Positions 25,129 to 50,216 of a stretch of DNA of 64,000 bases are shown piece after piece (position 1 is the first letter of the stretch; every line of letters begins with the position of its first letter). The stretch comes from Nitrospirota bacterium. GTDB lineage: Bacteria; JACPQY01. The stretch is from the NCBI GenBank assembly GCA_016180645.1, contig JACPAV010000010.1:1-64000 (forward strand), read 5' to 3'. Made by a program: the position numbers and the translations under genes. The notes beneath the pieces are model-generated. The model saw only the letters and a list, made by a program, of their open reading frames with translations. It did not search any database and was not told where the DNA came from.

Positions 25129-28100
25129 AGTGCTCCGCTCTGCGTCATTCCTCGCCCTGCTGTTCACCGTTCACTGTTTTCTCCTCGCTCGCTCCGCCTG
25201 GGCCGTGTGCCCGGACGGCGCGGCAACGACGTGCTACTACGTAAACGATTGCTGTACGAGGAATGATGTCTATACGTACGCAGCGGATGCGGACATGGCT
25301 ACCGGGGATGACACACTGGCGTGCGCCTCTTACGAGAGTACGGCGACCCCGGCCCGAAGTATTCGCGAGATCATCACGAGTTGTCCTCTGGCGGCCAACA
25401 CTCGTATTTTTGTCGACACAGGATTCTATCTCAGCCGCCAATACACCGTGGACTGTTCGGTCGTGGATACGGCCAACGCCTGCGAGCTGGGCGGCGCCGA
25501 TCCCGCCGGCGTGGCGCCCTTCAATGATGCAGGAGCCGCGGGAAACATCCTCATTCAAGTGCCGAATATCGCCATCATCGGCGTCCCTTTCCCCGGCGGA
25601 ACCGTGGTGGACGGTCACGGCGCCACCGGCGGCGGCTCGGCTCAAACCAATGTTTTCTACATCGATGGTCCCGGCGGCGCGGACAGCGTGCGAATCCAGA
25701 ACATCGACATACCCCACGGCCAGCGAGGGATCTTCATCGACGATGCCGACAATAACATGATCGAAGGCGTCCTTTCACGGGACCATACAGGGGGGCCGCA
25801 GACCGGCATCGAGGAGCAACTCGGAAGCAACAACTACTTCCGAAACGTCGTCACGGCGAACAACGGGAAAAGGGGTCTCGTTCTCCTGGGGGCCGCAACC
25901 GCGGTTGTGGAGAACGGCACGTTCTACATGGATGGGTCCGCCGGTGGCGACATGAACGTTCTCGTGGGCAGCCAGGGTGGCACGGACTCCAGCAATGTGT
26001 CGATCCGGAACAGCATCTTCTTCATCGAAACCGGAAACAGGAGAGGACTCGTTGTGAACGACGGCAGCCAGGCCGGCTTCCGCAGTAACTTCAACAATTT
26101 CATCCGCGACACGGCAAGTGCGGACTGCGGTCGTTGGAGGGGGACGAACGCGACCACGTTGGCCGACTGGCAGGCTTGCACGGACAACAACAACTGCGGC
26201 GACGGTGCCACCTGCACCGCCGCCACCACCGAGTGCCTGGACGGCGGCGGCGGCGCCGACTCCTGCGATTGCGAAAGCGGCTCCGAACTTCTGGTTGCAA
26301 CCACCCACCCCGTTGACAGCGCGGACCGCGATTTTCACATGAAGGGCCGATTCGGCCATTTCGACGTCGGCGAACCGACGTGGTTCAACACCGCCGATTC
26401 CGACGGGGACGGGATCATCGATGAGGGACCGTTCGAGATCTTCACGTGGGGGGACGAGATCACGTACACCGTCTCGCCCCTCGATACGGGGTGCAACGTG
26501 GCCACCGGAGCCTGCGCCGCGCGAGGGATCGCTCCCACGGGTAATTCGAGCAATTTGGAGCACGAAGGCAACAGCGACCGCCCAAACGCCGAGGGATACG
26601 CCCAGAACTACGGCGCCTCCCGCGGCAGCTTCACGCTTCCACTGACGGCCGCGGTCGTCCAGGGCACGCTGGGCGACCCGGACCTCATCGGGGGAACGCC
26701 GCCCACGCGCACCATGGGGGTGGGGGAGCCCGCGCTCATAGTAACGCTCACCCACACCGGGGGGGCCGCGAACAGCGATACGTTCATCCTCGGCGACATG
26801 GATCCGGCAGACGTGTGCACGGCGCCGGGGACACTGGCCGGCCCCGGGTCCTCTTATCTCCAGATTACGGACGGCGTGGACACGATGGTCGCCTACCTAT
26901 CCGACATGAAAATCGGCGTCCCCACCGACTGGTGCATCGATCCGGGCGAAGCGGCCACGCTCTACTTCCAAGCCTACCGGCCGATGCCGGAGGGTTTCTA
27001 CAGCGGCGACTACTTCGCCACGCTCGTCCTGAGAGGCTGGATGTACATCAAGGACCACTTCAGCATGGCGGGAATCAACACCCTGTCCTTCTTCCGCGAT
27101 TTCATCCAGAACAAGCCCCGGCAGATGCGCGGCACGATCGGAGGGGTCAACAATTTCGGCGCGTTCGTGGACGGCCTCGTCCCCTTTCCGGACCAGGCGG
27201 TTACGACGACCAACAAATGGACCGTTCGCGGAGGCGGCGTGGCCACGGCGGACGTGGCGCGCCCGATCTACGTGCCCGGCTGTTTCGACGCCACCAACGC
27301 CGGCGCCAACGCGAACAACTCGGCCTTCACCATCCGCGCCGTGGACGGAACGGCGGACAACATCGTCCTCAGCGTATGCGAGAATGGGACCGGCGCGTAC
27401 AGCCTCAGCGCGTCCGTCGGAGGGTGCGACGGCGCGAGCGACAGCTACGTCCTCATTCAAGACATGAACGGCGGCACGTATCGCACCTGTTCGGCCACGG
27501 CGGGCGTTGTGACACCGTGCGCGCTGGCCACGACCTGCGCGGCCGGCAGCACCGCGGTGACCTTCAACACGGGCGGAGATATGGGGGCGCTGTGCAACGG
27601 CCCGGCCACCGTCGAACTGGGACTCTACGATGGCGCGGCCGTTACCGTGCGCACGATCCCCGAGCCGGTTTACATTGTGGACAGCGCCACGGCCAACTGC
27701 CGCACCTCCCGCATCCAGTACGTCCAGGGCACCCGGGATATGATTCCGGGGGGGGCGATCCAGGATACCCGTGCGGTGGGCGCCTCATTCGACCCGGAGC
27801 TGTCCATCCGGACGGTCTGGAACGATCGGGGGACGATTCAGGATGATCCGGCCAACACGTTTTCGGGCCTCACGATCATGGATGCCGAGGCCCAGAGCGT
27901 TACCGATGCCTCGCCGCGCACGGTGAGCTCCTACTGCGATCCGACGGGCGACAGTTGCGACGGCGGCGGCGCGAACCCCCTCCAAGTCGGGGAGAGCATG
28001 TACATCACGTTCGACGATGCAACCAACAACGGAGTGGACGACGCAGCGCCCAACATCCCGGCCGGCATGTGCAACGGCACCGCTGAACTGCGGCTCAACG

Positions 28101-28732
28101 TGCGCGGAACGGAAGGGGCGGACGGCGTGGCCCTCAATGAAAATCCCACGGTGGTGGACGGCGTAACCATTTCCGGCGGATACGACTGCATGACCTGCAT
28201 GGCCCAGACCCTCGAAATTTCCGGCGGTGACTCCTCGGCCGGCGACAATCGCGTCACCACCACGGCGGGTACATCCACCACATTGCGCGCTCAACTCTAC
28301 AACACCGGAACGGCCGCCTTCACGATTGCCGCGGGGACCTGTCAGGGGCCTCCTTGCGTGGGCGTGGGTACGGCTTGCTGTACGGCGGGCACATGCCTCA
28401 CGTTCACCGATGGCACGGCCGCCGGCACGTTCTGTGCCCCGGCGAGCAATGCTCGCACGTGTGGAGCCGACGTCTTCGCGTGCGCGGGGGCCGACAACTG
28501 CGCCTTGGGCTGCGCCGTCGGCGCCGGGACGCAGGCGCGGGTGACCTTCGCGGCCACCGTCGTCCCTGCCGTGATCCTGACAACCGAGCCGCCCAGCCCC
28601 TACACGCCGACGATCGTCATGACCGGGAGCCTGAACGAGACCTGCGACCCGGACGACATCGATGTGGATCCGGCATCCACGGGCATCGGCGACAAAGTCA
28701 CCGAATCCGGCTGGATCGAAATCGAACGGTAG
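25115..28732 (+). CDS. Secreted Cys-rich protein with right-handed parallel beta-helix domain (1,205 aa)
   Basis: Signal peptide ending SAWA; beta-helix-type repeats (VRIQNIDI, GIFIDDADNNMIEG, VSIRNSIF); C-terminus VTESGWIEIER. Confidence 0.85.
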   Translation: MKSAEVLRSASFLALLFTVHCFLLARSAWAVCPDGAATTCYYVNDCCTRNDVYTYAADADMATGDDTLACASYESTATPARSIREIITSCPLAANTRIFVDTGFYLSRQYTVDCSVVDTANACELGGADPAGVAPFNDAGAAGNILIQVPNIAIIGVPFPGGTVVDGHGATGGGSAQTNVFYIDGPGGADSVRIQNIDIPHGQRGIFIDDADNNMIEGVLSRDHTGGPQTGIEEQLGSNNYFRNVVTANNGKRGLVLLGAATAVVENGTFYMDGSAGGDMNVLVGSQGGTDSSNVSIRNSIFFIETGNRRGLVVNDGSQAGFRSNFNNFIRDTASADCGRWRGTNATTLADWQACTDNNNCGDGATCTAATTECLDGGGGADSCDCESGSELLVATTHPVDSADRDFHMKGRFGHFDVGEPTWFNTADSDGDGIIDEGPFEIFTWGDEITYTVSPLDTGCNVATGACAARGIAPTGNSSNLEHEGNSDRPNAEGYAQNYGASRGSFTLPLTAAVVQGTLGDPDLIGGTPPTRTMGVGEPALIVTLTHTGGAANSDTFILGDMDPADVCTAPGTLAGPGSSYLQITDGVDTMVAYLSDMKIGVPTDWCIDPGEAATLYFQAYRPMPEGFYSGDYFATLVLRGWMYIKDHFSMAGINTLSFFRDFIQNKPRQMRGTIGGVNNFGAFVDGLVPFPDQAVTTTNKWTVRGGGVATADVARPIYVPGCFDATNAGANANNSAFTIRAVDGTADNIVLSVCENGTGAYSLSASVGGCDGASDSYVLIQDMNGGTYRTCSATAGVVTPCALATTCAAGSTAVTFNTGGDMGALCNGPATVELGLYDGAAVTVRTIPEPVYIVDSATANCRTSRIQYVQGTRDMIPGGAIQDTRAVGASFDPELSIRTVWNDRGTIQDDPANTFSGLTIMDAEAQSVTDASPRTVSSYCDPTGDSCDGGGANPLQVGESMYITFDDATNNGVDDAAPNIPAGMCNGTAELRLNVRGTEGADGVALNENPTVVDGVTISGGYDCMTCMAQTLEISGGDSSAGDNRVTTTAGTSTTLRAQLYNTGTAAFTIAAGTCQGPPCVGVGTACCTAGTCLTFTDGTAAGTFCAPASNARTCGADVFACAGADNCALGCAVGAGTQARVTFAATVVPAVILTTEPPSPYTPTIVMTGSLNETCDPDDIDVDPASTGIGDKVTESGWIEIER

Positions 28733-28824
28733 CGCCAAGCGCCGCGAATCGTGGCTCGCCATATGCGAAGGGGGCGCATCTCATCTTGAGATCCAGGCTG
28801 AAGCTGAGTTCTGATAGCCGGTAG

Positions 28825-28854
28825 TTGACACATGACTATACACGTGTCTATACT
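28825..28854 (+). promoter_or_regulatory. Sigma70-type promoter of TA operon with CTATAC direct repeats (putative operator)
   Basis: TTGACA(28825)-N18-TATACT(28849); ATG follows 6 nt later; CTATAC at 28836 and 28848. Confidence 0.7.
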
Positions 28855-28860
28855 TGTATC

Positions 28861-29163
28861 ATGCAAAAGGTAAACGCCCTTCAACTCAGGCAGTCTCTAG
28901 GCAAGATTTTGAGAAAGCTGGAGAAGACCGGCGAGCCCATCCTGGTCGAGAAGAATCGCGAGCCCAAGGCGGTGCTCGTGACGGTGAAGGATTTCAAAGA
29001 ACGCTATCTGGACTTGCCCAGGCCCTCGCTCGAAGAGCGAACTCGAATCGTGGAGCGAATTGATGAACTGGCCAAAAGGGTGGCCCCGGAAATCGAGCCG
29101 ACCATACCCGGCGTGAACGATATCGTGACGCTTATCCGGCAAATGCGGGGTCCCCTTCGCTGA
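28861..29163 (+). CDS. Phd/YefM-family antitoxin
   Basis: MQKVNALQLRQSLGKILRKLEKTGEPILVEKNREPKAVLV is a typical Phd fold N-terminus; lies upstream of a PIN gene. Confidence 0.85.
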   Translation: MQKVNALQLRQSLGKILRKLEKTGEPILVEKNREPKAVLVTVKDFKERYLDLPRPSLEERTRIVERIDELAKRVAPEIEPTIPGVNDIVTLIRQMRGPLR

Positions 29164-29576
29164 GAATCGTTCTGGATTCCTCGGTGGCTGTCGCTTGGTT
29201 CGTGAGGACCGGGGAGCCTTGGGTGGAACCGGCTCTGAAATGCAGGGAGCGGATACGATTGGGGACGGACACCGCCATCGTCCCGGAGCTCTTCTTCTTT
29301 GAGATGGTGGCCGTCTTGTGTCGCAAACTGAAAGCGCCGGAACCTGTCGCGGGCGCGCTTCGAGAATTGGATAGCTTCGTGCGGCTAAGATTCGCGCTGG
29401 ATACGGCCTTGGGCGATCTGGCCGTGGGGCTGTCCATCGCCCACGGGCTGAGCGGATATGATGCCGCCTATGTGGCTCTTGCAAGGCTGACTGAGAGTCT
29501 GTGGATCACGGCGGACCGGAAAGCGCATGAGCGTGTGGCGGCGCTAGGGCTGTCGCGGCTGGTCGGGCCGCCGTGA
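29160..29576 (+). CDS. VapC/PIN-domain toxin (probable CTG start)
   Basis: LRIVLDSSVAVAWF...PELFFFE...LSGYDAAYVALA...WITADRK; CTGA overlap with the antitoxin stop. Confidence 0.85.
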   Translation: MRIVLDSSVAVAWFVRTGEPWVEPALKCRERIRLGTDTAIVPELFFFEMVAVLCRKLKAPEPVAGALRELDSFVRLRFALDTALGDLAVGLSIAHGLSGYDAAYVALARLTESLWITADRKAHERVAALGLSRLVGPP

Positions 29577-29613
29577 TGAGGGAGCATCCAAAAGATGCTC
29601 CCCTACGAGTCAC

Positions 29614-30162
29614 TCAGTCCACCGTCGTGCGAATCCGGCGCTCGGCGAGGATTCGCCCTGAATTTCCAAGTCGCCGGCCCACCGAATCGATCGTGCGCTT
29701 GGTGCAGGATTCTGAATCTCCGCCATCCGCATCGACAAATTCGGTGTCGGTGACGCTGATGTAGGCCGTCCCGTTCGGAAGCTGCACTTGGCAAAGGGTC
29801 GGCTTGGCGGTAAGGGAGGACCCCGCGGCCTCGTGACAATCCGGAGTCTCGCCGGGTTGGCCCCAATCGCAGTCCGATTCGAGATTGTGCACGGCCCATG
29901 CCACCCCGGCCTCGGCGATGTAGAGCGCCTCCCCCGAATAGAGCTGCCTCAGGCTGGCCTCCTGCTCGGTCGTCGTGACGCGATAGAGCAGAAGCCCGAT
30001 CGCCGAAATGGCGATGAGGATGAAGAGGGTGGTGATGAGGTTGATGCCTCTGCTGCCAAGAGTTCCTGGTTCCTGGTTCCTGGTTCCTGGTTGCGGAGAG
30101 AGTGTCTCCTTCTTGTTCCTTCCAGGAACGAGGAACTTGCCACCAGGAACTTCTTGAATCAT
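29614..30162 (-). CDS. Minor pilin, PilX/MshP/GspK-like
   Basis: G/INLITTLFILIAISAIGL without Glu5, then EALYIAEAGVAWA; ATGA overlap with the upstream gene; repeat-derived leader. Confidence 0.8.
   Translation of the reverse strand: MIQEVPGGKFLVPGRNKKETLSPQPGTRNQEPGTLGSRGINLITTLFILIAISAIGLLLYRVTTTEQEASLRQLYSGEALYIAEAGVAWAVHNLESDCDWGQPGETPDCHEAAGSSLTAKPTLCQVQLPNGTAYISVTDTEFVDADGGDSESCTKRTIDSVGRRLGNSGRILAERRIRTTVD
30062..30152. repeat. 91-bp palindromic element, copy 1 (GTTCCTG arm / spacer / CAGGAAC arm)
   Basis: 88/91 identical to 30772-30862. Confidence 0.95.
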
Positions 30163-30869
30163 CGCTCCGCCAAATCCCTCGGAAAGACGCTCGTTCGGAG
30201 CGTGACGTTGCGCAGGGGGTCCGTGGTGCTCGTCCCGCGGCGAAGCTGGAGCTCGATCTGGACCCGCCAGATGAAACACATGTCGGCGGCGGCCAGCGCC
30301 CCGTCTGGAATCTGGGTCCCATTGTAGCGATAGTATTCGAATAGGTCCGAGTTGACCACGTTCCGGGCAAGGGCTTCCCACGAGGTGCAGGCGTCGCAGG
30401 CGACGGCGCCGACCGCCGCGGCGGTGCCCCGCTCGAGGGTCGTGCCGTTCTTGCGGTAACACACGCGGGGAGTGTCGGGGAGGTTTGAGCGGAACTCGAA
30501 CTGGTCGTCCTTTGCGCAGAGAACGTCGGTCTCGGGCGCGCTGGTGGCACAGCCCGCGGGAACGGGGAGGGTGTTGTCGGAGTCCGAAAGCATCCGGATA
30601 TCCCGCGTCATCTTCTCCAATGCCTCCATCCCCTCCTTCACCATGTCGCGCCGCTCGGCCTGCGCGAGCCCGCCGCGGATGCCTTGGGAAACGATCAGTC
30701 CGAGCACGCCGGAGAGGGCGATCGCGAGGACGATGACGAGCACGAGTTCCAGCAAGGTGAAACCGGAAAAGGTTCCTGGTTCCGGGTTCCTGGTTCCGGG
30801 TTGAGGAGAGAGTGTCTCCTTCTTGTTCCTTCCAGGAACGAGGAACTTGCCACCAGGAACTTTCTTCAC
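30159..30869 (-). CDS. Minor pilin, PilW/MshO/GspJ-like
   Basis: G/FTLLELVLVIVL...ALEKMTRDIR; GTG start in a GTGA overlap. Confidence 0.85.
   Translation of the reverse strand: MKKVPGGKFLVPGRNKKETLSPQPGTRNPEPGTFSGFTLLELVLVIVLAIALSGVLGLIVSQGIRGGLAQAERRDMVKEGMEALEKMTRDIRMLSDSDNTLPVPAGCATSAPETDVLCAKDDQFEFRSNLPDTPRVCYRKNGTTLERGTAAAVGAVACDACTSWEALARNVVNSDLFEYYRYNGTQIPDGALAAADMCFIWRVQIELQLRRGTSTTDPLRNVTLRTSVFPRDLAER
30772..30862. repeat. 91-bp palindromic element, copy 2
   Basis: Near-identical to 30062-30152; encodes the prepilin leader. Confidence 0.95.
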
Positions 30870-31621
30870 CGGTTGACCACCATCGTCGTCAGATCGATGT
30901 AGGCCTGGTCCTTGGTCGTCCCGCCCCACGAGATCCGGACCGAGATGTACTTGAGATCGGCGTTGCCGGTGCCGGGGAAAGTGGACGACGAGTAGGTGGT
31001 GCCGTCGGAGGCGGGATAGCAGGTGCCGAAACATTGCCCGCTGCATGTCCCGTATCCTTTTCCGGACGTGTAGCAGACGGTGACGCGCTCGCGGAAATCG
31101 GAATAGTAGGAAATCGTCGTGCACGTGTTGTCGGCGATCAGGCCGACCCGATCCGTCCCCCCTCCCCCAAGGGGTGGGCAGCCGTCGATTTCGCTGTCCA
31201 TGCCGTCGTAGTCATCGATATCGGTAAAGGGGAGGGACAGGGCGCCGCCGCCGTCGCGCGACTTGTTTGTTTCAGGACCGAGTCCCATCGCATCCGTCAC
31301 CGGACTCGTGCACGTGCAGTAGGTCCCGACGGCCGGGCAGGTGTCCGGCGGCGGACAGTCCACTTGCGCCGACGTTGCCGAGATGTAGTTGTCCCACTTG
31401 TGCGAGAGGATTTCCTCCATGAGGTCTTGGCCCAGGGCGTAGGCTCGATTGTAGCTCTCCACCTGAACGCTGAGTTTCTTGCTCTGCCATATCGGGCGGA
31501 GGGCGACCACGAGGCCGACGGTGAGGAGGACGATCACCACGACCAATTCGATTAGAGTGACCCCTGAAAAGGTTCCTGGTTCCTGGTTCCTGGTTTCGGG
31601 TCCCTGGGCTTTTGACGACAT
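30866..31621 (-). CDS. Minor pilin, PilV/MshD/GspI-like
   Basis: G/VTLIELVVVIVL; LGQDLMEEILS and FTDIDDYDG resemble MshD-type motifs. Confidence 0.85.
   Translation of the reverse strand: MSSKAQGPETRNQEPGTFSGVTLIELVVVIVLLTVGLVVALRPIWQSKKLSVQVESYNRAYALGQDLMEEILSHKWDNYISATSAQVDCPPPDTCPAVGTYCTCTSPVTDAMGLGPETNKSRDGGGALSLPFTDIDDYDGMDSEIDGCPPLGGGGTDRVGLIADNTCTTISYYSDFRERVTVCYTSGKGYGTCSGQCFGTCYPASDGTTYSSSTFPGTGNADLKYISVRISWGGTTKDQAYIDLTTMVVNR
31571..31607. repeat. (GGTTCCT)n heptamer array in prepilin leader
   Basis: ggttcct x3 plus degenerate units; reads RNQEPGT on the minus strand. Confidence 0.9.
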
Positions 31622-31680
31622 CTCGATGACATTGTAGCATGGTGTGTGCCATAGAAAACTTACTGGAGGGATCGGGGAGC

Positions 31681-32658
31681 ATGAAAGACATCGAAGAATC
31701 GGAAGTTTTCAAGCGGGCTCACACGCTCGTCCTTGAAGTGTACCGACTGACCGAGCGGTTCCCAAACCGGGAAATGTTCGGCATCTCCTCTCAACTGCGG
31801 AGGGCCGCCCTCTCCGTGACTTCCAATCTGGTTGAGGGATCACAACGGATGAACCAAGCGGAGTACCGCCACTTTGTGAGCCTCAGCAAGGGATCGGCCG
31901 CGGAGGCCCGATACCAAACGCGTGTGGCCTACGAACTTGGGTATCTTTTGGAAAAGGATTTCAGAGAACTGTCCGCTTCCTACGAAAGAGTCATCCGCAT
32001 GCTCAGGGGTCTCTACGCGTCGCTCGATGGAAAGCGGCCTTCCAGGAACCAGGAACCAGGGCCTCTCTTGCCCACTAGGAACCAGGAACTAGGAACTAGG
32101 AACTCCGGAGCGTTTACGCTCTTGGAAGTCATCGTCGCCCTCGTCCTCATGGCGGTGCTGGCGGGTATTGCCATCAGCCGGATGTCGGGGTCGAGCCGGG
32201 TGAAACTGGAGCAGGCGGCGCGAATGATGTCGCACGACCTGAACTTCGCGCGCGACTGGGCCATGACGCACGCGACATCCGTGCGGGTGATCTTCGACCG
32301 GTCGACGGAAATCTACGGCGCGTCGTACTGGAGCGTGGATGCCGGCGCGGGAGCCGGCGCCTGGGAATGGATCTCGTCCTACAGCCTCGGGAGCGCCTTG
32401 ACGGTGGATATGGACGAACAGTTCGAAGGGGTGGACATCGCGGACTTCTTCATCGACGGCGCTTCGGTTCCGACGGCCAATCCTCCGGACGGCGTGGGCT
32501 ACACCAGCTTTGCGCTCAGCAGCCTCGGAACGCCGCGGCATGCGTACAACGGGACGCCCCTGACGTCCATGAATCGAGTTACGCTTTCCTTTGGAAGCTA
32601 CACCGAGTACGTGTCGATCCAGCCGTACTCCGGCTACATCTACGTCTGCTCGCAATAG
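31681..32658 (+). CDS. Fusion: four-helix-bundle (IVP/Avd-like) domain + prepilin (FimU/MshC/GspH-like)
   Basis: SD GGGGAG before ATG 31681. FPNREMFGISSQLRRAALSVTSNLVEG...GSAAEARYQ...ELGYL matches four-helix-bundle motifs. The frame continues without a stop through a repeat linker into GA/FTLLEVIVALVLMAVLAGIA. Confidence 0.9.
   Translation: MKDIEESEVFKRAHTLVLEVYRLTERFPNREMFGISSQLRRAALSVTSNLVEGSQRMNQAEYRHFVSLSKGSAAEARYQTRVAYELGYLLEKDFRELSASYERVIRMLRGLYASLDGKRPSRNQEPGPLLPTRNQELGTRNSGAFTLLEVIVALVLMAVLAGIAISRMSGSSRVKLEQAARMMSHDLNFARDWAMTHATSVRVIFDRSTEIYGASYWSVDAGAGAGAWEWISSYSLGSALTVDMDEQFEGVDIADFFIDGASVPTANPPDGVGYTSFALSSLGTPRHAYNGTPLTSMNRVTLSFGSYTEYVSIQPYSGYIYVCSQ
32042..32103. repeat. (CCAGGAA/CTAGGAA)n heptamer arrays linking the four-helix bundle and pilin domains
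   Basis: Units start at 32042, 32049, 32056 and 32075, 32082, 32089, 32096. Confidence 0.9.
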
Positions 32659-32663
32659 AATCG

Positions 32664-32698
32664 TCGAACGTCGCGCGGCGAACGTCGAACGCCAAGAA
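32664..32698. repeat. Degenerate (TCGAACG)n heptamer array between the fusion gene and truD
   Basis: tcgaacg tcgcgcg gcgaacg tcgaacg ccaagaa. Confidence 0.7.
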
Positions 32699-32700
32699 CC

Positions 32701-33876
32701 ATGAAGATCAAAGTCAAGAGCGATGATTTCGTTGTCGAAGAAGTCCTGTCTGCGCATCCCTTGTCCGATCGGGGCGACCACGTTTGGTACAAGTTGAGAA
32801 AGAAGGGCCTGACCACGCCGGAAGCGGTGGGAATCCTGGCGCGGCGATGGAGTGTCCCGCCTTCGAAGTTCCACTACGCGGGACTCAAGGACAAGTATGC
32901 GATCACGACTCAGACCCTCTCGGTTGAAGGTCCTTCGGGCGATGGTCGGCGCGAGAAAGGTGACGACCTATCCGCCGAACCGCTGGGCCGGTCGGACCGT
33001 CCGGTCGGACCCGACCTGCTCGAATCGAATCGGTTCACGGTGGTGGTGCGGGATATCCCGCCTCTGGAGACTGAAAAGATCGCCGCGGCCTTCATGGAGG
33101 TCCTCAATTTCGGGTTTGTAAACTATTTCGGCGAGCAGCGGTTCGGATCGGCGCGCCACGGTCACGGCTTCCTCGCCCGTGAACTGCTGAAAGGGGAACC
33201 TGAAAAAGCCCTGAAACTGTACCTGGCGACGTGGGATCGAAAAGACCGCTCGCGTCTCAAAGCGTTCAAGAAGCATGTGAATGAGAACTGGGGGGACTGG
33301 TCGGCCTGCCTCAAATCCTCCCAGCGATCGACCGAACGAAGCATCATCCATTACTTGAAGGATCACCCACAAGACTTCATGGGCGCGGTAAATCGCATTC
33401 CACGATCACTCCTTTCGATCTTCCTTTCCGCCTATCAAAGCTATCTGTGGAATGAGACCGTGCGGCGCCATCTTTCGGAAGCCTTCGGGGGCGAGGTCCG
33501 CCTGTTCCCCTTCCGAAACGAGCATGTCCACTGGGCCTTCTATCGGATCATGCCGGACGCGGTTTTCGCGCGGCTGGAGGACCTCAACATTCCGCTGATC
33601 GACAAGCGGGTGGTGTACCCCGACGAGTTCATGGAGAAGACTATTTCCGCGCTTCTGGCGGAAGAGGGAGTGGAGCGGAGTCAGTTTGGGCTGAAAGGTA
33701 TTCGGAACGCTTTTTTCAAGTCATCTCCCCGGAAGATTGTGGTTGTCCCGGAAGATTTTGAGATCGACCCCACGGCGACGGACGAAGTCCATGCCGGGAA
33801 AAAGAAAGTCGTCCTACGCTTCTCGCTCCCTCCGGGCAGCTACGCGACAGTGCTTCTTAGACGGCTGGGGGCGTGA
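32701..33876 (+). CDS. truD: tRNA pseudouridine(13) synthase
   Basis: DFVVEE, YAGLKDKYAITTQ, NRFTVVVR, NYFGEQRFG, FSLPPGSYATVLLR. Confidence 0.95.
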   Translation: MKIKVKSDDFVVEEVLSAHPLSDRGDHVWYKLRKKGLTTPEAVGILARRWSVPPSKFHYAGLKDKYAITTQTLSVEGPSGDGRREKGDDLSAEPLGRSDRPVGPDLLESNRFTVVVRDIPPLETEKIAAAFMEVLNFGFVNYFGEQRFGSARHGHGFLARELLKGEPEKALKLYLATWDRKDRSRLKAFKKHVNENWGDWSACLKSSQRSTERSIIHYLKDHPQDFMGAVNRIPRSLLSIFLSAYQSYLWNETVRRHLSEAFGGEVRLFPFRNEHVHWAFYRIMPDAVFARLEDLNIPLIDKRVVYPDEFMEKTISALLAEEGVERSQFGLKGIRNAFFKSSPRKIVVVPEDFEIDPTATDEVHAGKKKVVLRFSLPPGSYATVLLRRLGA

Positions 33877-33970
33877 GGCGTGAAGGGTGATGAGTGATGT
33901 GAAAGACACGGTCGATGGATTTCCGCGGGGTTTCTCCTCACCTTTCACCCTTCACGTTTCACGACTCAGA
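33872..33970. repeat. Inverted pair of heptamer arrays (GTGA-type / TCAC-type) between convergent truD and lysA
   Basis: TGA at 33874, 33881, 33888, 33895; TCA at 33938, 33945, 33952, 33959, 33966. Confidence 0.85.
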
Positions 33971-35231: not shown

Positions 35232-35262
35232 TTTGAAATCTCAAATCTCAAATTTGAAATCC
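35232..35262. repeat. (TTTGAAA/TCTCAAA) heptamer array upstream of lysA
   Basis: tttgaaa tctcaaa tctcaaa tttgaaa. Confidence 0.85.
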
Positions 35263-35277: not shown

Positions 35278-35892
35278 TCACTTCATCCCCTCTTCCGCGG
35301 GCGGTAACACGAAGCTGACTTCGTTGGAATCATCGCTGAGACGGCCCGACTCGTTGGCGGATACCACCACATAGAACGCCTTGTTTCGCGCCTTTTCCAA
35401 TTCCGAGGGCTTCTTCTTGAAGATTCGGCTCCCGGCGGCCGCTTCCGCGGCCTCCTTCCGAGCGGCCTCCTCGGCTTCCCGGATCTTGGCCACTTCTTCC
35501 GCCAAGGTGCGCGCTTCATCGGTGGGGATGTCGGCCCGGGTTGGGCGGCGTTCGCGGTAGCGGACGCGCTTGACCGTTTCACGTTCGGTTCTCTCGTCGA
35601 ACTTGACTTCCCCCACCGCATGATACGGCGCAAACTCGATCTTCCGAAGCACCTTGAACCCGGCCAGATCTTTCAAGGTCCAGCCGTTGGCGTTGCGCCG
35701 GGGAATACTCCAAGTCAGGACGATGTCTTCGCCTTCCTCGAACAGGGTCAGGTCGATGATCCTCTGGGGAACCACGTCCTCCGGTGCGTAGGGTTTCTCC
35801 TTCCTTCCGCAGGCGGCCACCCAGGCTCCGCAGACCAACATCGCAGCCACGGAGATTCCACGTTTCATGGACGGAGCGTTCGTTCGCGTCAT
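35278..35892 (-). CDS. Lipoprotein (LppL/YifL-like N-terminus, FN3-like body); start may be 35868
   Basis: Lipobox VAA/CGRKEKPYAP; position upstream of lysA is typical for this family. Confidence 0.7.
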   Translation of the reverse strand: MTRTNAPSMKRGISVAAMLVCGAWVAACGRKEKPYAPEDVVPQRIIDLTLFEEGEDIVLTWSIPRRNANGWTLKDLAGFKVLRKIEFAPYHAVGEVKFDERTERETVKRVRYRERRPTRADIPTDEARTLAEEVAKIREAEEAARKEAAEAAAGSRIFKKKPSELEKARNKAFYVVVSANESGRLSDDSNEVSFVLPPAEEGMK

Positions 35893-36054
35893 CGGCGCTT
35901 TGTCATAAGGTCCGGGCGGGGTAATGTCAACCCCGAGTGAGAATCTTGGCGTCTTCTTGACCGATCGCGCCGGCGATGTCCAAGCTGCCATTCACGAGTG
36001 GATACACCTTATGGTATTGACCTTGCCATGCATACCAAAGATTGGGCTTTTGTG

Positions 36055-43091: not shown

Positions 43092-43123
43092 CGTAAACAA
43101 GTCGAACAGCGTAGGCTGGCGCC

Positions 43124-43795: not shown

Positions 43796-43893
43796 TCAGC
43801 GGTCGGGGGTCGGCGTTCAGAGGTCCGGAACCAGGAACCAGGAACCAGGAACCAGGAACCAGGAACCAGGAACCAGGAACTAGGAACTAGGAA
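43796..43893. repeat. 14-unit phase-continuous heptamer array (TCRGNGG-like units switching to CCAGGAA)
   Basis: Units start every 7 nt from 43796; 7x CCAGGAA and 2x CTAGGAA at the 3' end. Confidence 0.95.
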
Positions 43894-43917
43894 CCTTCCC
43901 ACGTATACTTTCCAGCC

Positions 43918-45012
43918 ATGCTGAAGGAACGTATCGCCGTGCTCATGAGCGGCGGAGTCGACAGCTCCGTCGCCGCCGCCCTGCTCAAGGAACAGGGACA
44001 TGACCCTATCGGCCTCACCTACAACATCGGTCCCTCGCGAGTTCACGGAATCGCGGGTTCACGGGATCACGGTTCACGCTGCTGCGGCATGGACGACATG
44101 ACCGATGCCGCGACCATCGCATCCCAACTTGGAATTCCCCACTATGTCCTCAATGTCCGGGATTCGTTCGCGCGCGGGGTCATCGGAGATTTCGTCGAGA
44201 GCTACCTGAAGGGCGAAACTCCGCTGCCCTGCGCCCACTGCAACACGCGGGTGAAGTGGGGAGAAATGGCCGATCGGGCCAGGGAGATGGGGGCGAGCCG
44301 CATGGCCACGGGGCACTATGCAAAAGTCGATTGGGATGCGTCGCGAGGCCGGCACGTATTGAAGCGGGCCATGGATCTTGAGAAGGATCAGTCCTACTTT
44401 CTTTTCGGCCTCAGCCAGGAGCAACTTGCGTCCGCGATCTTTCCGCTTGGGGACCTCACCAAGCCCGAAGTTCGTGAGCGCGCCGAGGCGTTGGGGTTGG
44501 TCGTCTCCGACAAGAAGGACAGCCAGGAGCTTTGCTTCGTTTCCTCCGGCCACTACTCCGAAGTCATTGCGCCTCACGCCTCACGCCTCACGCCTCACGC
44601 CGCCGGAGAGATTGTGGATGTCTCCGGCGCCGTCCTCGGCACTCACGACGGCTTCTTCAAATTCACCGTGGGGCAGCGGCGGGGTCTCGGACTGAACGGC
44701 GGACCTTACTACGTGAAATCCATCGATTCCGCCACGAGGAAGGTCGTGGTCGGCAACGCGGATTCCACATTGACCGACAGCCTGACGGCTCGTGATCCCA
44801 ATCTGATCGGCTACGAGTCTTGGGAGTCAGTGGGGAGGGTTCGCGCCCGAGTTCGATACCGGCACAAAGGCGAATGGGGTTCGGTGCGATGGGACGGCCA
44901 AAGACTGAAGGTGGAGTTTGAAAATCCGGTTCGAGCCGTTGCGCCGGGGCAAGCCGTGGTCTTCTACCGCGAGGATGAAATCGTGGGCGGAGCGTGGATC
45001 ACACCGGGATGA
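43918..45012 (+). CDS. mnmA: tRNA 2-thiouridylase
   Basis: MSGGVDSS, TPLPCAHCN, ATGHYA, KDQSYFL, DSQELCF, GQRRGLG, APGQAVVFY. Confidence 0.97.
   Translation: MLKERIAVLMSGGVDSSVAAALLKEQGHDPIGLTYNIGPSRVHGIAGSRDHGSRCCGMDDMTDAATIASQLGIPHYVLNVRDSFARGVIGDFVESYLKGETPLPCAHCNTRVKWGEMADRAREMGASRMATGHYAKVDWDASRGRHVLKRAMDLEKDQSYFLFGLSQEQLASAIFPLGDLTKPEVRERAEALGLVVSDKKDSQELCFVSSGHYSEVIAPHASRLTPHAAGEIVDVSGAVLGTHDGFFKFTVGQRRGLGLNGGPYYVKSIDSATRKVVVGNADSTLTDSLTARDPNLIGYESWESVGRVRARVRYRHKGEWGSVRWDGQRLKVEFENPVRAVAPGQAVVFYREDEIVGGAWITPG
44571..44601. repeat. (TCACGCC)x4 in frame within mnmA
   Basis: Encodes APHASRLTPHA just before GEIVD. Confidence 0.9.
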
Positions 45013-45114
45013 GCGTTCAGCAGTCAGCGGTCAGCCTTCAGCCCGAAGTCATCTGGAATAGCCACGTGACTATAGTCCTAGAGCTGAAAGCTGATTGCTG
45101 ATGGCTGAAAGCTC
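45010..45114. repeat. Inverted heptamer arrays (TCAGC-type / GCTGA-type) at the mnmA-mtaB junction
   Basis: TCA at 45017, 45024, 45031, 45038; CTG at 45084, 45091, 45098, 45105. Confidence 0.88.
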
Positions 45115-46507
45115 AAACACAACGTTCACCGTCATCTCCATGGGCTGCCGCACGAATTATTCCGATTCCCAGGCGCTCAAGCAGAAACTGGCGGCCGAAG
45201 GGTTGCGATACGTTCCCTTCGCGCCGGGGATCCCTGCCGATCTGTATGTAATCAATACCTGCACCGTGACCTCCCGCGCAGACTTCGATTCGCGGTCATG
45301 GGTTCGCAAGGCGAAGCAGTGGAATCCCGACTCAACTGTTGTGGCCACGGGATGCTATGCGCAAATTCAGAGCGCCAAGCTTCTTGGGGCAGGTGCGGAC
45401 TTGGTGCTCGGCAATCTGGAGAAGGATAGGATTGGAGAGGTTCTGCGCCTCGCTCTGGAGGACAGGCGCCCGGTCGTGAGCGAGAAAATCAGGCGAAAGG
45501 GTATTCCCTTCGCAACGGGGACGTCCGACGACCAGGATCGAACCCGGCCCGTCCTCAAACTCCAGGATGGCTGCGATCAGTGTTGCAGTTTCTGCATCAT
45601 TCCCACCACGCGCGGGCACTCCCGAAGCCTCCCTCCGGACGCGGCGGTCGAGCAGTACAGGAGACTCGTCGGACTGGGCGCCCGGGAAGTGGTTCTCTCG
45701 GGTATCAATCTCTCTTCATATGGAGAGGACCTCGTGCCCCGAACAACGCTCGCGGACCTCCTGAACCGCTTCGAGGGGGAAAAAGATGGCGCCTGGATCC
45801 GCATCAGTTCGATCGAGCCGAGCGGATTGACCGAAGACCTTCTGGCGGTCATCCGGTCGAGCCGAAAAATTTGCCCCCATTTCCACGTGCCGCTTCAGAG
45901 CGGCGATTCGGAAGTGCTCGAGCGAATGAATCGGCCATATTCGATTGAAAAATATGAGGAGAAGATCCGCGCCCTGGCCAATGTCCGGATTGCGGCCCGG
46001 CGGGATGCCGGCCGTACTCTCGACGTTTCCGGTGGACAGGAAGTCCATGATAGCGGTGAGAGTGAAATGTGCATCGGCACGGATGTGATGGTGGGCTTTC
46101 CTGGGGAGTCGGAGGCGCAATTCGAAAACACCCTGCGCGCGGTCGAGGGCCTGCCTTTCGCCTACCTGCACGTGTTTCCCTATTCCGTACGTTCGGGTAC
46201 CAAGGCAGCGAAAATGAAGGGCCTCGTCGACCGGAAAACGCGCCAACGCCGGTCCACAACGATGTCCCGTCTCGGAGATCGGAAGAGAACGGAATTCCTC
46301 CAACGGCAAGTGGGTTTCGTCCATGAAGCATTGGTCGAATCTCGCGGGAAACGGCCAGCAGAGTGGCGGGCCACGACGCGGAACTATATCCGGATGTCCT
46401 TCTCCGGTTCGGGCGATCTGCGAAATCGGATTGTGAAACTTCGGGGGTTGTCCGTTGAGGGCGTGCGTTTGCATGCAGCTATGGTTCATGAGGAATCTGG
46501 CCACTGA
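45101..46507 (+). CDS. mtaB: t6A methylthiotransferase (radical SAM)
   Basis: MGCRTNYSDS, INTCTVT, TGCYAQ, QDGCDQCCSFCIIP, GTDVMVGFPGE, HVFPYS. Confidence 0.92.
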   Translation: MAESSNTTFTVISMGCRTNYSDSQALKQKLAAEGLRYVPFAPGIPADLYVINTCTVTSRADFDSRSWVRKAKQWNPDSTVVATGCYAQIQSAKLLGAGADLVLGNLEKDRIGEVLRLALEDRRPVVSEKIRRKGIPFATGTSDDQDRTRPVLKLQDGCDQCCSFCIIPTTRGHSRSLPPDAAVEQYRRLVGLGAREVVLSGINLSSYGEDLVPRTTLADLLNRFEGEKDGAWIRISSIEPSGLTEDLLAVIRSSRKICPHFHVPLQSGDSEVLERMNRPYSIEKYEEKIRALANVRIAARRDAGRTLDVSGGQEVHDSGESEMCIGTDVMVGFPGESEAQFENTLRAVEGLPFAYLHVFPYSVRSGTKAAKMKGLVDRKTRQRRSTTMSRLGDRKRTEFLQRQVGFVHEALVESRGKRPAEWRATTRNYIRMSFSGSGDLRNRIVKLRGLSVEGVRLHAAMVHEESGH

Positions 46508-47321
46508 AGCGATTGTCCTCAAAGCGACTCCTTTCGGCGAGTCGGACCGTCTGGTCACTCTATTCACGCGCGAGGCCGGTCTTCTTTCGGCCATGGCCAA
46601 GGGTGCGCAACGGAGCCGGAAGCGTTTCGGTGGTACGCTGGACTCTCTCTCGAAAGTGCAGGCGATGGTCCAGTGGCGGAAATCGAATGCGATGCCGCTC
46701 CTCGCGGCGGCATCCCTCGTCGATTTTGGATTGGGCATTCGATCGGATCTGCGGCGTGTGGCCCAGGCTTCCTATATGGGCGAGCTCATTTGGCGTGGTT
46801 CGAAGCCGGGCGTGAGGATGATGGACCTCTACGATGCCTGTTGCCTCGTCCTCGGCCGACTGGCGGCGGAGGGACCGGAGCCGGATACTCTCGCGTGGTT
46901 TCTGCTGAAACTTCAGACCGCCCACGGCTATCGGCCCAAACTCGATGTCTGCTCGATCTGTCAGGGTCCCATCGGGGCGCCCAACGGAAATCGAGGGCCA
47001 CGAACCACGAGCCACGATGAAGTGCCCATGAGCTACAAAAGCGGCGGCGTCGTTTGCTCCCGCTGTGCGGATCGTGCGGAAATCAATATGCAACTCCCCG
47101 TTGGCGCTCTCTCCTGGCTCCAGTCTCTTTCCAATCCCGCCGTCGCTGCTTGTCTCCCGTCGCCTCACGCCTCACCCTTCACGGCTAACGACTTGCGACT
47201 CACGGCTCACGAGCAGCGTGCTGCTCAGCAATTCCTCCACCGTTTCATTCTCTTTCATCTTGAGTTCCAACCCGCCTCATGGCGCTGGTGGCATCGGATC
47301 GTTGAAAGAACCGAGGCCTGA
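46488..47321 (+). CDS. recO: DNA repair protein RecO
   Basis: EAIVLK...GESDRLVTLFTREAG...AKGA; CxxC...CxxC zinc finger. Confidence 0.93.
   Translation: MRNLATEAIVLKATPFGESDRLVTLFTREAGLLSAMAKGAQRSRKRFGGTLDSLSKVQAMVQWRKSNAMPLLAAASLVDFGLGIRSDLRRVAQASYMGELIWRGSKPGVRMMDLYDACCLVLGRLAAEGPEPDTLAWFLLKLQTAHGYRPKLDVCSICQGPIGAPNGNRGPRTTSHDEVPMSYKSGGVVCSRCADRAEINMQLPVGALSWLQSLSNPAVAACLPSPHASPFTANDLRLTAHEQRAAQQFLHRFILFHLEFQPASWRWWHRIVERTEA
46991..47213. repeat. Two in-frame heptamer arrays in recO (CCACGAN at 46991-47018; TCACG-type x7 at 47165-47213)
   Basis: 7-nt phase conserved; encode GPRTTSHD and PHASPFTANDLRLTAHE. Confidence 0.85.
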
Positions 47322-47378
47322 GGTATGAGGGCCGATGTGGATTCCTGCACTCAGTCCTCAGTCCTCGGTCCTGGGGGC
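47312..47378. repeat. Inverted heptamer arrays (TGAGG-type / TCAGTCC) at the recO-argS junction
   Basis: CGA/TGA at 47312, 47319, 47326, 47333; TCA/TCG at 47351, 47358, 47365. Confidence 0.8.
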
Positions 47379-47383
47379 TGGAT

Positions 47384-49081
<1,698 letters not shown>

Positions 49082-49094
49082 CCCCCCGAATGAA

Positions 49095-49121
49095 GTCATC
49101 CTGAGCGAAGCGAAGGATCTC
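49095..49121. repeat. REP-type palindrome arm GTCATCCTGAGCGAAGCGAAGGATCTC (partial complementary arm at 49402-49411)
   Basis: Resembles a widespread REP arm; GAGATCCTTC at 49402 is the reverse complement of its last 10 nt. Confidence 0.7.
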
Positions 49122-49178
49122 TCGGATGAACCGAAAATGCGGTTTTCTATCGGGATAGCTTGTGATAAGATCATACCC

Positions 49179-49403
49179 GTGGGTATTAATATCGACGAAG
49201 TGATCGAGAAGGCATTGGAGTCGGCCTTCTCCCGTGCCCTCCAGCAGACCATTGAAGGCAAGGCGGAAATCCTCTTCAAGCGGGCATTCGAGAATGGTTC
49301 TCCTGTAGCCAGGAAGCTCGAACAGAAGATCGAAGAAGGATTTCAGAAGTTCTTCGAGAAAGGTATTCAGTGGGAGAAGAAGAAAACCGGTTTCAAGAAA
49401 TGA
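49179..49403 (+). CDS. Small helical hypothetical protein (~74 aa)
   Basis: Protein-like ORF (GINIDEVIEKALESAF...) filling the argS-SPOR gap; start uncertain. Confidence 0.65.
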   Translation: MGINIDEVIEKALESAFSRALQQTIEGKAEILFKRAFENGSPVARKLEQKIEEGFQKFFEKGIQWEKKKTGFKK

Positions 49404-49412
49404 GATCCTTCA

Positions 49413-49496
49413 ATTCACGATTGACGATTCACGACCCCCAGGAAGGGGGAAGTGCCGCGGGAGGGCAGGAGCCCGGAGCGGCCGGTTCACGATTCA
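49413..49496. repeat. TCACGA heptamer array containing copy 2 of the 62-bp element (49431-49492)
   Basis: Matches 39085-39146; ends just before the SPOR gene ATG. Confidence 0.9.
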
Positions 49497-50216
49497 ATGG
49501 CTGACAACATCGGTCGAACCAGTTCGCGTTACGAATTCAGCGCCGATCCGAAGCAATTCGCGCTCCTGCTTGGAGTCGCGGGCCTTTTCGTGGTCGTTGT
49601 TTTCTTTTCCGGAGTTCTTGTCGGGAACATCGTGGCGAAACGACAGGCCAGGCCAACGCTGGCATCGGCGACCGTGCCGGGTGAGGCGGGCGACAAGAAA
49701 AGCGGGGCGATCGACGAAGAGCGGATTTTGAAGGAGTTGGATGCCTCCGCGGCTCCGGAGCCGGGAATGGCGACTCCTCCCGTTGAGTCCGCGCCGCTCC
49801 CCATGGCCGAGCCTGAGCCACCCACCCGGGAGGCAGCTCCACCGCAGATCAAACGGGAGGTTGTGGAACTCACGCCTCCGCCGCCGGTCCGGAAACCGAA
49901 ACCAACATTCGTCCCCTCCGTGAAACCCAAACCAGCTCCCTCACTTGCCACTCGCCACTCGCCACTCGCCACCGGCTCAAGCTACTACTCCGTCCAAGTC
50001 GCCGCCTTCCGGGAGCGGCCGCTGGCGGACCGATTCGCGAACAATTTGAAATCGAAAGCCTACGAAGCGTACGTTGTAAAGGCCAACCTGCCGAGCGGAT
50101 TGTGGTACCGTGTTCGCGTCGGCAAGGTTACTTCCGAGGCGCAAGCCCAGTCCCTCCACTCCAAGCTCGTCAACCGCGAAAAACTCGCCGGCATCATCGT
50201 CCACGAAGGCCGGTAG
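49497..50216 (+). CDS. SPOR-domain cell-division protein (FtsN/DedD-like)
   Basis: TM helix, Pro-rich linker, YSVQVAAF...WYRVRVG; downstream of argS as usual. Confidence 0.9.
   Translation: MADNIGRTSSRYEFSADPKQFALLLGVAGLFVVVVFFSGVLVGNIVAKRQARPTLASATVPGEAGDKKSGAIDEERILKELDASAAPEPGMATPPVESAPLPMAEPEPPTREAAPPQIKREVVELTPPPPVRKPKPTFVPSVKPKPAPSLATRHSPLATGSSYYSVQVAAFRERPLADRFANNLKSKAYEAYVVKANLPSGLWYRVRVGKVTSEAQAQSLHSKLVNREKLAGIIVHEGR
49941..49975. repeat. (CCACTCG)n in-frame heptamer array in the SPOR linker
   Basis: tcacttg, ccactcg x3, ccaccgg; encodes SLATRHSPLAT. Confidence 0.88.

Follow-up and report, generated by a model that had tools for sequence, protein, structure and literature searches.

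A stretch of 64,000 nucleotides from a Nitrospirota bacterium (contig JACPAV010000010.1; hereafter the window, which is C54:1-64000 of a 4.72-Mb assembly, G000, of 65 contigs that is 97 % complete) was found to include a gene of the PF05635 (IVP, S23p or Avd-like) four-helix-bundle family lying between inverted tandem arrays of a 7-nt unit. IVP cassettes and arrays of short period belong together, as is evident from the anatomy and from the statistics. We show the anatomy of the cassette and its stem, the genome-wide specificity for period 7, the recent gain of arrays, a flanking rule for IVP genes from 41 genomes and the co-occurrence of arrays and IVP genes among 300 genomes. We propose, with about even confidence, that the cassette, which is of the intervening sequence (IVS) type, and the solo arrays dispersed over the genome make up one mobile-repeat system.

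The features at and around the IVP gene are as follows; arrays were called with Tandem Repeats Finder (TRF), and ORF denotes an open reading frame.

31571-31607, minus strand: (CCAGGAA)x5.3 in the leader of prepilin-like ORF 30866-31621(-), upstream stem arm at the IVP gene (TRF, fold).
31681-32040, plus strand: IVP / S23p / Avd-like four-helix-bundle gene, PF05635 domain at 31693-32007.
32042-32104, plus strand: (CCAGGAA)x2.7 and (CTAGGAA)x4.4, downstream stem arm and also the leader region of the pseudopilin (TRF, fold).
32098-32658, plus strand: portion of ORF 31639-32658 that codes for the pseudopilin; aa 154-179 hold the N-terminal methylation motif.

The PF05635 domain encoded by ORF 31639-32658 scored 111.7 bits against a cut-off of 33.8 and covered profile positions 1-105 of 106 (Pfam), and among structures in the PDB it matched 2GSC, a pentameric four-helix bundle, at E 2.6e-19 and 2RLD at E 0.0096. 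The family motif has been published as GxxRxxxSxxxNxxE, and the R-x3-S-x3-N-x2-E portion is present as RAALSVTSNLVE, with the leading G off the published spacing. In this ORF the domain is followed by a prepilin methylation motif. The IVP gene likely starts at ATG 31681 and, because there is no stop before the arrays, the frame runs on from IVP into the pseudopilin, for which an in-frame TTG located 14 codons before SG/AFTLLE could serve as an independent start. On the other side of the gene, array 31571-31607 codes for part of the 20-aa leader peptide MSSKAQGPETRNQEPGTFSG of ORF 30866-31621(-), which is followed by /VTLIELV.

On either side of the IVP gene is a CCAGGAA array, at 31571-31607 and 32074-32104, the two being inverted relative to each other. 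Folding of the RNA corresponding to 31555-32125 produced an unbroken 27-bp stem around the ORF in both the minimum free energy and the centroid structures, formed by pairing of the (GGTTCCT) units at 31571-31597 with the (CTAGGAA/CCAGGAA) units at 32078-32104, and none of 100 shuffled sequences folded as well (z -3.65). A PF05635 gene between inverted arrays of approximately 30 nt built from a 7-nt unit would constitute an IVS-type cassette, the transcript of which would fold into a stem of ~27 bp around the ORF in the design of a 23S rRNA intervening sequence. By analogy with rRNA IVSs, RNase III, whose gene (rnc) is present in G000, would cut the stem here. Rather than in helix 25 or 45 of 23S rRNA, however, this cassette is located between the divergent pilin-like ORFs 30866-31621(-) and 32098-32658(+). 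It is single-copy in the genome, and a search of Rfam found no known RNA family in 24500-51000 (E<=0.1).

The preliminary description of this DNA took about 19 arrays in the window to be a local system. They are instead the densest patch of a genome-wide population of 233 strict arrays (exact period, at least 3.5 copies, score of at least 35, not low-complexity), and C54:30001-50000, with 19 strict arrays, is the densest 20-kb stretch of the genome (mean 1.2, 99th percentile 9). While 233 of the strict arrays in G000 have period 7, only 49 have period 8, five period 6, four period 10 and three period 9, and there are none of period 5 or 11. In a second-order Markov simulation with the same trinucleotide content, 0-1 strict period-7 arrays and ~50 lenient period-7 TRF rows arose per 2 Mb by chance. 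Hence, roughly a quarter of the 473 lenient rows found in the genome may be noise; the strict set, unlike the lenient rows, is not noise.

The sequences of the units are far less uniform than their length. There are 193 canonical units in the genome, the largest families being TCTCAAA (35 arrays), TCATCAC (22) and CCAGGAA (13), and this diversity, together with the rarity of other periods, agrees with the earlier suggestion that periodicity matters rather than sequence. A YCA-like triplet recurring at a fixed phase had also been noted in the window and this too extends to the whole genome, where TCA/TGA is the commonest phased triplet and four TCA in 7-nt phase occur at 126 loci, compared to 2, 29 and 3 loci for periods 6, 8 and 9, respectively. 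The arrays vary little in length (mode 30-31 nt, 297 arrays), and of the 159 that have at least three phased TCA, 108 have TCA triplets that together span 24 nt; thus, four phased TCA are usual. The possibility of five triplets per array, one for each subunit of a ring, was rejected as four are typical and five are found in just 14/297.

Several further properties were examined in the genome-wide set. Neighbouring arrays are inverted relatives in just 8 of 68 pairs, and perfect flanking stems of at least 7 nt were found at 8.8 % of arrays versus 4.4 % of random sites, an enrichment too weak for such stems to be a general rule of solo arrays. Nine of the 297 arrays are placed between CCACC and GGTGG, compared to 0.2 % of random sites, and this pattern is concentrated in the TCTCAAA family. 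No replication-strand bias of intergenic TCA arrays was detected using local GC skew (27 on the G-rich and 21 on the C-rich strand, p=0.47). Cargo other than IVP was also looked for between inverted arrays, and the sole candidate with a long gap, C10:46247-46657, is inside one long ORF and is not a cassette.

The association of arrays with IVP genes was then found at the other IVP genes of G000, which has seven PF05635 matches, five of them above the cut-off. Each of the four strongest is accompanied by period-7 arrays at a distance of 25-90 nt, whereas the array density would predict this for ~2 %, and at two of the four the arms are clearly reverse complements. At the IVP gene in C40, the (GATTTGA) array on the upstream side is the reverse complement of the (AAATCTC) array on the downstream side, and a third array lies in frame inside the ORF. 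The gene in C42 (C42:680-979) is between hsdS and hsdR. A decayed IVP remnant at C43:9726-10034 lies between GTGA-type and TCAC-type inverted arrays, the latter coding for the hydrophobic core of a lipoprotein signal peptide. Arrays of the TCATCAC/TCACCCT type code for signal-peptide cores in a paralogous lipoprotein family (C37:138, 2592, 5032, 7342, 12535 and C43:10007), and the same remnant of an IVP C-terminus precedes the genes at C43:10007 and C37:138. Each of the three commonest unit families of G000 (35, 22 and 13 arrays) is represented at or near an IVP gene. In the ring 0.5-10 kb around the five strong IVP genes there are 16 arrays versus 4.9 expected, or 8 versus 3.7 when the gene in the window is left out, which is suggestive only of local spreading of arrays from IVP genes.

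IVP loci from other genomes were examined in two sets, the first consisting of 25 full-length loci from 17 genomes (at a further one of which, L026, the array was missed only because it starts outside the scanned zone), and the second, independent set of 24 full-length loci, one per genome, from 24 other families. Arrays of the period-7 family were present on both sides at 13/25 loci in the first set and 11/24 in the second, and on at least one side at 17/25 and 18/24. When periods 8 and 9 were included, the figures for at least one side rose to 20/25 and 23/24, or 43 of the 49 loci from 41 genomes, against a background of 0.12 arrays per flank zone. The upstream and downstream flanks were complementary over at least 18 nt with no more than two mismatches at 13/25 and 15/24 loci (28/49 together) compared to none in the reversed control in either set (0/49). 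Each cassette has its own unit, for example (GAACTGA)7 with (AGTTCAC)7 or (CCAGTCG)21 with (GAGACTG)17, and in one genome, G036, the units found beside its IVP genes recur in all four of the arrays sampled elsewhere.

Two further arrangements were seen in this material. Two IVP genes of G299 (loci L116 and L117) adjoin apparent CRISPR arrays, with 36-37-nt repeats ~70 nt apart; IVP genes have been reported inside cas operons, which agrees with the defence contexts seen in G000 and G299. In G018, which has almost no period-7 arrays, 19 half-length PF05635 matches occur in divergent pairs (L018, L029) with period-8 arrays nearby, representing a different architecture of the family.

Co-occurrence was assessed in 300 whole genomes from 235 families using as proxy the number of matches to four TCA-N4 units or the reversed form, which covers TCA/ACT-type units only and to which the arrays flanking IVP genes add slightly; genomes with PF05635 at E<=1e-5 were scored as IVP-positive, and the counts were transcribed by hand. 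Of the genomes with a proxy count of at least 10, 74 were IVP-positive and 12 IVP-negative, while below 10 there were 39 and 175, respectively (odds ratio 28, Fisher's p 1.6e-28; Spearman's rho 0.66), though kinship among the genomes inflates these statistics. With the split at 50, 37 IVP-positive and five IVP-negative genomes lay at or above it and 76 and 182 below. The relationship was retained with one genome per family (array-rich, 42 IVP-positive and seven IVP-negative; array-poor, 24 and 100). A period-10 control was near chance in the same genomes (7 versus 2159 in G220; 2 versus 1882 in G078). In regions away from IVP genes, there were no strict period-7 arrays in 796 kb from 11 IVP-negative genomes and 29 in 809 kb from 12 IVP-positive genomes, seven of which had at least one. 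The link between the arrays and the four-helix-bundle family drawn in the preliminary description is therefore upheld both by physical flanking (43/49) and by cross-genome co-occurrence, the latter being the ground on which that description had offered the link for refutation.

Copies of both cassettes and arrays were found at more than one locus. The composite (GGGGTCA)n(CCAGGAA)n found in argS in the window recurs at C47:5460-5518. IVP cassettes of 499-568 bp that are 97-99 % identical occur at two loci each in G299, G157 and G131. The 511-bp cassette of G157 has short terminal inverted repeats and 8-bp target duplications, TTTAATTC and AATTGAAA, and one of its copies is shorter by one heptamer.

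In the explanation that we propose, the hundreds of solo or paired arrays, each of about four units, would behave as selfish or neutral DNA, gained in particular lineages and copied between loci. They would survive only where ~30 nt can be tolerated, namely in spacers, in cleaved leader or signal peptides and in surface loops, and inside genes only in the strand that is free of stops. The IVP pentamer would bind nucleic acid in a 7-nt register and act as the trans partner of the arrays, as RAYT does for REPs (see below), and the solo arrays would derive from IVP cassettes or spread with their help. More tentatively, it is possible that PF05635 proteins are the dedicated trans partners of heptanucleotide arrays in many phyla, and that the ring grips single strands in a 7-nt register, or one of 8 or 9 nt in some clades, and so sets the period, maintains the arms and seeds or spreads solo arrays. 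If so, the pairing of IVP and arrays would account for the heptamer excess seen in bacteria (STRR, GGGAATC, TAACTGA and the Geobacter sets), as well as for rRNA intervening sequences and the function of Avd relatives that are not part of diversity-generating retroelements (DGRs). An IVP protein that acts on the arrays would represent a new class of repeat-protein partnership and provide a mechanism for a period that has so far only been guessed at.

A possible but somewhat doubtful alternative is that the protein has no connection with the arrays, which would arise by replication slippage favouring 7-nt units, and that IVP cassettes are mobile genes in their own right, which insert into arrays, capture them or are kept beside them since arrays offer complementary arms ready for use. 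A number of our findings weigh on this side and against a partnership. Twelve of the 86 array-rich genomes have no IVP, even by TIGR02436 at E<=0.01, and two of the 12 are complete single contigs; hence, arrays can persist without IVP. Conversely, 39 of the 113 IVP-positive genomes count as array-poor when judged by the TCA/ACT proxy. Array number does not follow IVP dose: the genomes with the most arrays have a single IVP hit, whereas there are 15 hits each in G018 and G157, with proxy counts of 1 and 76, respectively. Arrays outnumber IVP genes by ~50:1, and two other array hot spots in G000 hold no IVP. In G027, the two IVP flanks examined have no unit in common with any of the 13 arrays sampled. 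The target duplication and terminal inverted repeats of the G157 cassette lie outside its arrays, indicating that it moved like a miniature inverted-repeat transposable element (MITE) served by some transposase. A heptamer excess among bacterial repeats had, moreover, already been published. Independent origins are thus favoured by the occurrence of arrays in genomes lacking IVP, by the absence of any relation to dose and by the MITE-like ends of the G157 cassette.

Slippage, however, predicts a falling distribution of lengths, and the size mode is sharp at 30-31 nt. It also predicts mostly unique units, and there are families of 13-35 arrays and one composite present at two loci. Why the arms of nearly every cassette in the 41 genomes should be tandem and of short period, and not just any inverted repeat, is left unexplained, as is the finding of no strict arrays in 796 kb of 11 IVP-negative genomes. 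A partnership in which IVP acts on the arrays is preferred over independent origins, being favoured by the narrow size, the repeated unit families and the tandem-array arms.

The remaining arrays in the window bear on how the arrays are distributed within genes and spacers. With a score of at least 30, 24 of the 25 period-7 TRF rows in the window fall between 30062 and 49972, the other being a weak row of 2.1 copies at 393-407; two period-14 rows coincide with period-7 arrays, and other periods account for just 11 rows within 30-50 kb. Every motif named in the preliminary description is present and 21 of its 24 coordinates are within ~35 nt of a period-7 row; the other three (25161, 33872 and 47312) were not called by TRF and are 2-3 degenerate units visible by eye only. 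The matching rows are those at 30062, 30771, 31571, 32042/32074, 32662, 33938, 35236, 38993, 39053/39055, 39143, 43827, 44570, 45012/45017, 45082, 46998, 47161, 47350, 48743/48770, 49413 and 49942. Its observation that arrays are missing from the giant ORF and beyond 50.2 kb was correct except for the row at 393-407, and it did not list the period-8/16 array at 44035-44078 within mnmA. The arrays and related features, other than those at the IVP gene, are given below.

25161-25185, plus strand: weak TGTTCAC-like array of 2-3 units in the signal-peptide region of ORF 25115-28732 (by eye, TRF negative).
30062-30092, minus strand: (CCAGGAA)x4.4 at the 5' end of pilin-like ORF 29603-30160(-) (TRF and sequence).
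30771-30802, minus strand: (CCAGGAA/CCCGGAA)x4.6 in the leader of prepilin-like ORF 30159-30869(-), right before ...GTFSG/FTLLELV (TRF).
32662-32691, plus strand: (TCGAACG)x4.3 in the spacer preceding truD (TRF).
33872-33962, no strand assigned: inverted array pair enclosing no gene between the convergent truD and lysA, with GTGA-type units at 33872-33905 (by eye) and TCAC-type units at 33938-33962 (TRF).
35236-35261, no strand assigned: TCTCAAA-family array in the spacer between ORF 35278-35991(-) and lysA(-), bordered by complementary stretches of CCACC / GGTGG type (TRF).
38993-39022, plus strand: (CGTGGCG)x4.3 at the 5' end of the secretin ORF (TRF).
39053-39089, plus strand: (TCACGAY)x5 (TRF).
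39099-39139, plus strand: core of a 51-nt dispersed element with 20 genome copies, nested in the TCACGAY array.
39136-39175, plus strand: (TCACGAC-like)x4.7, continuation of the interrupted TCACGAY array (TRF).
43796-43895, plus strand: degenerate TCRGNGG units that pass gradually into (CCAGGAA)x9.9 in the spacer preceding mnmA; no other array in the window is as long (TRF).
44035-44078, plus strand: period-8/16 array in frame within mnmA (TRF).
44570-44601, plus strand: (TCACGCC)x4.6 in frame within mnmA (TRF).
45012-45117, no strand assigned: inverted pair in the mnmA-mtaB spacer, TCAGC-type at 45012-45043 and GCTGA-type at 45082-45117 (TRF).
46998-47017, plus strand: (CCACGAR)x2.9 within recO, in frame, inserting 11 aa in comparison with G001.
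47161-47211, plus strand: (TCACGNC)x7.3 in frame in recO, a net 5-aa insertion relative to G001.
47350-47372, plus strand: (TCAGTCC)x3.3 in the recO-argS spacer (TRF).
48743-48798, plus strand: composite (GGGGTCA)x4 and (CCAGGAA)x4 in frame in argS (TRF, alignment).
49413-49496, plus strand: (TCACGAT)x3 at the 5' end of the SPOR-domain ORF; a further copy of the 51-nt element, 49445-49485, splits the array.
49942-49972, plus strand: (CCACTCG)x4.4 within the SPOR-domain gene, in frame, inserting 11 aa in comparison with G001.

The arrays in the window thus occupy spacers, prepilin-like leader peptides, signal peptides and in-frame positions in conserved genes, where they fall in loops of the argS, recO, mnmA and SPOR-domain gene products. 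A similar preference was seen throughout the genome, though the percentages are approximate because the ORF caller was crude and miscalls two short pilin genes: 78/297 arrays (26 %) are intergenic versus 9.6 % expected at random, 34/297 (11 %) lie across an ORF end versus 3.2 %, and 185/297 (62 %) are inside ORFs versus 87 %. Of the 185 intragenic arrays, 71 are within 120 nt of the ORF start. Deep inside ORFs, TCA is in the sense strand in 50 cases and the antisense strand in two, a bias that avoidance of TGA stops would produce, whereas in spacers between genes on the same strand it is sense in 22 and antisense in 31.

The only close relative among the compared genomes is G001, which is from the same family; all of the others offered as relatives share only the domain. 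The host, known from groundwater metagenomes, belongs to a deep and very sparsely sampled lineage, and sequence of the window was found in four groundwater metagenome DNA runs from one study, three of which may be its source. Gene order from truD to the SPOR-domain gene is shared by G000 and G001, but this 17-kb block of G001 has a single period-7 array and most of the G000 arrays are missing at the orthologous sites. Protein alignments place the arrays of G000 as insertions within variable loops; RecO has insertions of 11 and 5 aa, ArgS of 8 aa, the SPOR protein of 11 aa and MnmA of 2 aa. At one site in mnmA different arrays are found in the two genomes, of period 8/16 in G000 (44035-44078) and of period 7 in G001. 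Hence, the arrays are recent gains that have survived where they were tolerated, and they are not conserved regulatory sites. The in-frame arrays in argS, recO, mnmA and the cleaved leaders provide a natural example of selection filtering a selfish repeat.

Other repeats and genes were noted in the same region. Near-identical stretches of ~65 nt (GAGAGAGTGTCTCCTTCTTGTTCCTTCCAGGAACGAGGAACTTGCCACCAGGAAC) follow the CCAGGAA arrays at 30093-30158 and 30803-30869, upstream of two consecutive pilin-like genes, and form a shared 5' leader with small palindromes. The ~51-nt dispersed element consists of GACCYCCAsGAw and the core and includes two small hairpins; there are 20 copies with no more than six mismatches, the two in the window (39099-39139 and 49445-49485) and 18 more, for example in C3, C23, C30, C32, C47 and C60. 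It is often nested in heptamer arrays of the TCACGxx type, sometimes in frame in genes, and resembles small dispersed repeats that reportedly insert in the heptamer arrays of Nostoc. A Phd/YefM antitoxin and PIN-domain toxin pair (28825-29576, plus strand) is directly upstream of the pilin-like cluster. The giant ORF, 2-24565 (plus strand), is one open frame of at least 8187 codons that runs past the 5' end of the window and contains the single 2.1-copy period-7 row.

The distribution of the arrays also bears on the mechanism first suggested for them, in which a pentameric IVP ring, like TRAP, reads the arrays in a triplet+N4 register as cis sites on mRNA that govern translation, processing or termination. 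The phasing of TCA at period 7, the enrichment in spacers and towards the 5' ends of ORFs and the co-occurrence of IVP and arrays are all consistent with this, and the CCACC...GGTGG stretches around 9 of the 297 arrays could mask a Shine-Dalgarno site. It is nevertheless unlikely and poorly supported, and it is the model least compatible with the orientation and conservation data. TCA is unbiased in its strand in spacers between tandem genes (22:31), the arrays are missing at the orthologous sites in G001, and many are in the coding loops of housekeeping genes. In addition, four phased triplets are typical and not five, and there are 193 units for only 5-7 IVP genes.

Since 7 nt do not make up a whole number of codons, adding or losing one unit would switch the reading frame, and arrays might be retained as contingency loci that turn genes for surface proteins (four pseudopilins, lipoproteins and the secretin) on and off. 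Four pilin-like genes in a row indeed have arrays in their leaders, and arrays are also present in the signal peptides of lipoproteins; the two copies of the G157 cassette are unequal in unit number, as, according to published work, are strains of Coxiella. However, arrays are also found in argS, mnmA and recO, where a frameshift would destroy the gene, and in many spacers, making this explanation quite improbable. The preliminary description also raised an enzyme that writes heptamers. A telomerase-like or reverse-transcriptase-like polymerase that does so on a short template, with IVP in the role of an Avd-type partner, is already disfavoured. It would suit the uniform length of the arrays and the published homology of IVP to Avd, the partner of the DGR reverse transcriptase, but it is very improbable given that no RVT_1 match was found in the 97 %-complete G000 and that 193 units would require as many templates.

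Two orphan features, the excess of heptanucleotide repeats in bacteria and the widespread small IVP/S23p proteins, which were originally found in rRNA intervening sequences, are now linked. The flanking rule, seen in two independent sets, and the co-occurrence with an odds ratio of ~28 are new here, and they turn a vague analogy into a concrete, testable hypothesis. Among the systems with which this one can be compared, TRAP is a ring protein that recognizes regularly spaced triplets, 2-3 nt apart, at 11 sites that are strand-specific and conserved. It differs from IVP in having an unrelated fold, and the arrays described here are unbiased in orientation and are not conserved as sites. The Avd pentamer binds nucleic acid. 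PF05635 is listed as the Avd family and the Avd proteins of DGRs are homologous four-helix bundles; however, G000 has no reverse transcriptase match and there are no template or variable repeats beside the IVP gene.

The likeness to REP-associated tyrosine transposases (RAYTs) and repetitive extragenic palindromic (REP) sequences is closer. In REP/REPIN-RAYT systems, the protein gene is flanked by inverted short repeats that are present in hundreds of copies elsewhere, and there is no dose relation between gene and repeat. RAYT is an HUH nuclease with known chemistry, while we know of no catalytic activity for IVP. Shared with the system described here are the small number of genes and their flanking by inverted copies of a widely dispersed repeat. 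Here, by contrast, the repeat is a tandem array and not a palindrome, and the units differ between cassettes.

Cyanobacterial heptamer repeats go by the name of short tandemly repeated repetitive (STRR) sequences, and the comparison with them made in the preliminary description was apt. An excess of heptamers in bacteria has been reported, with 7 nt guessed to be the footprint of a polymerase (an idea attributed to Mrazek 2007). Reported examples include the GGGAATC arrays of Xanthomonas, where each genome has 70-75 inverted pairs; paired sites, made up of four octamers or five heptamers, and 49 (GGACCGG)4 elements in and between genes in Geobacter metallireducens, proposed to be regulator sites; and TAACTGA repeats in Beggiatoaceae, for which limits on orientation due to stop codons were noted. 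Like the arrays in G000, those in the cyanobacteria (STRR), Xanthomonas and Nostoc (GGGAATC), Geobacter and Beggiatoaceae number in the hundreds per genome, have period 7, are mostly in spacers with some in genes, and often form inverted pairs. However, those genomes have one or a few dominant units, whereas G000 has 193 canonical units with a TCA phase. In the text of these papers, as far as it was available to us, no connection to IVP genes is drawn.

The statement in the preliminary description that no established mechanism links heptamers to this protein family was nearly right, the exception being Coxiella, where tandem GACAGAT heptamers in the 28-bp stem of the 23S rRNA IVS lie beside an S23p ORF, the number of units varies by strain and RNase III cleaves. 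That IVS paper treats the heptamers as a local detail, and it was the only link between the IVP family and heptamers found in a literature search that covered the main texts of papers. The rRNA IVSs of Coxiella, Leptospira and Xanthomonas nevertheless share with the window cassette a PF05635 ORF set within terminal inverted repeats, and their stem of ~28 bp is matched by the 27-bp heptamer stem found here. They differ in that the window cassette lies between pseudopilin genes and its ORF is without a stop and continues in frame into the pseudopilin.

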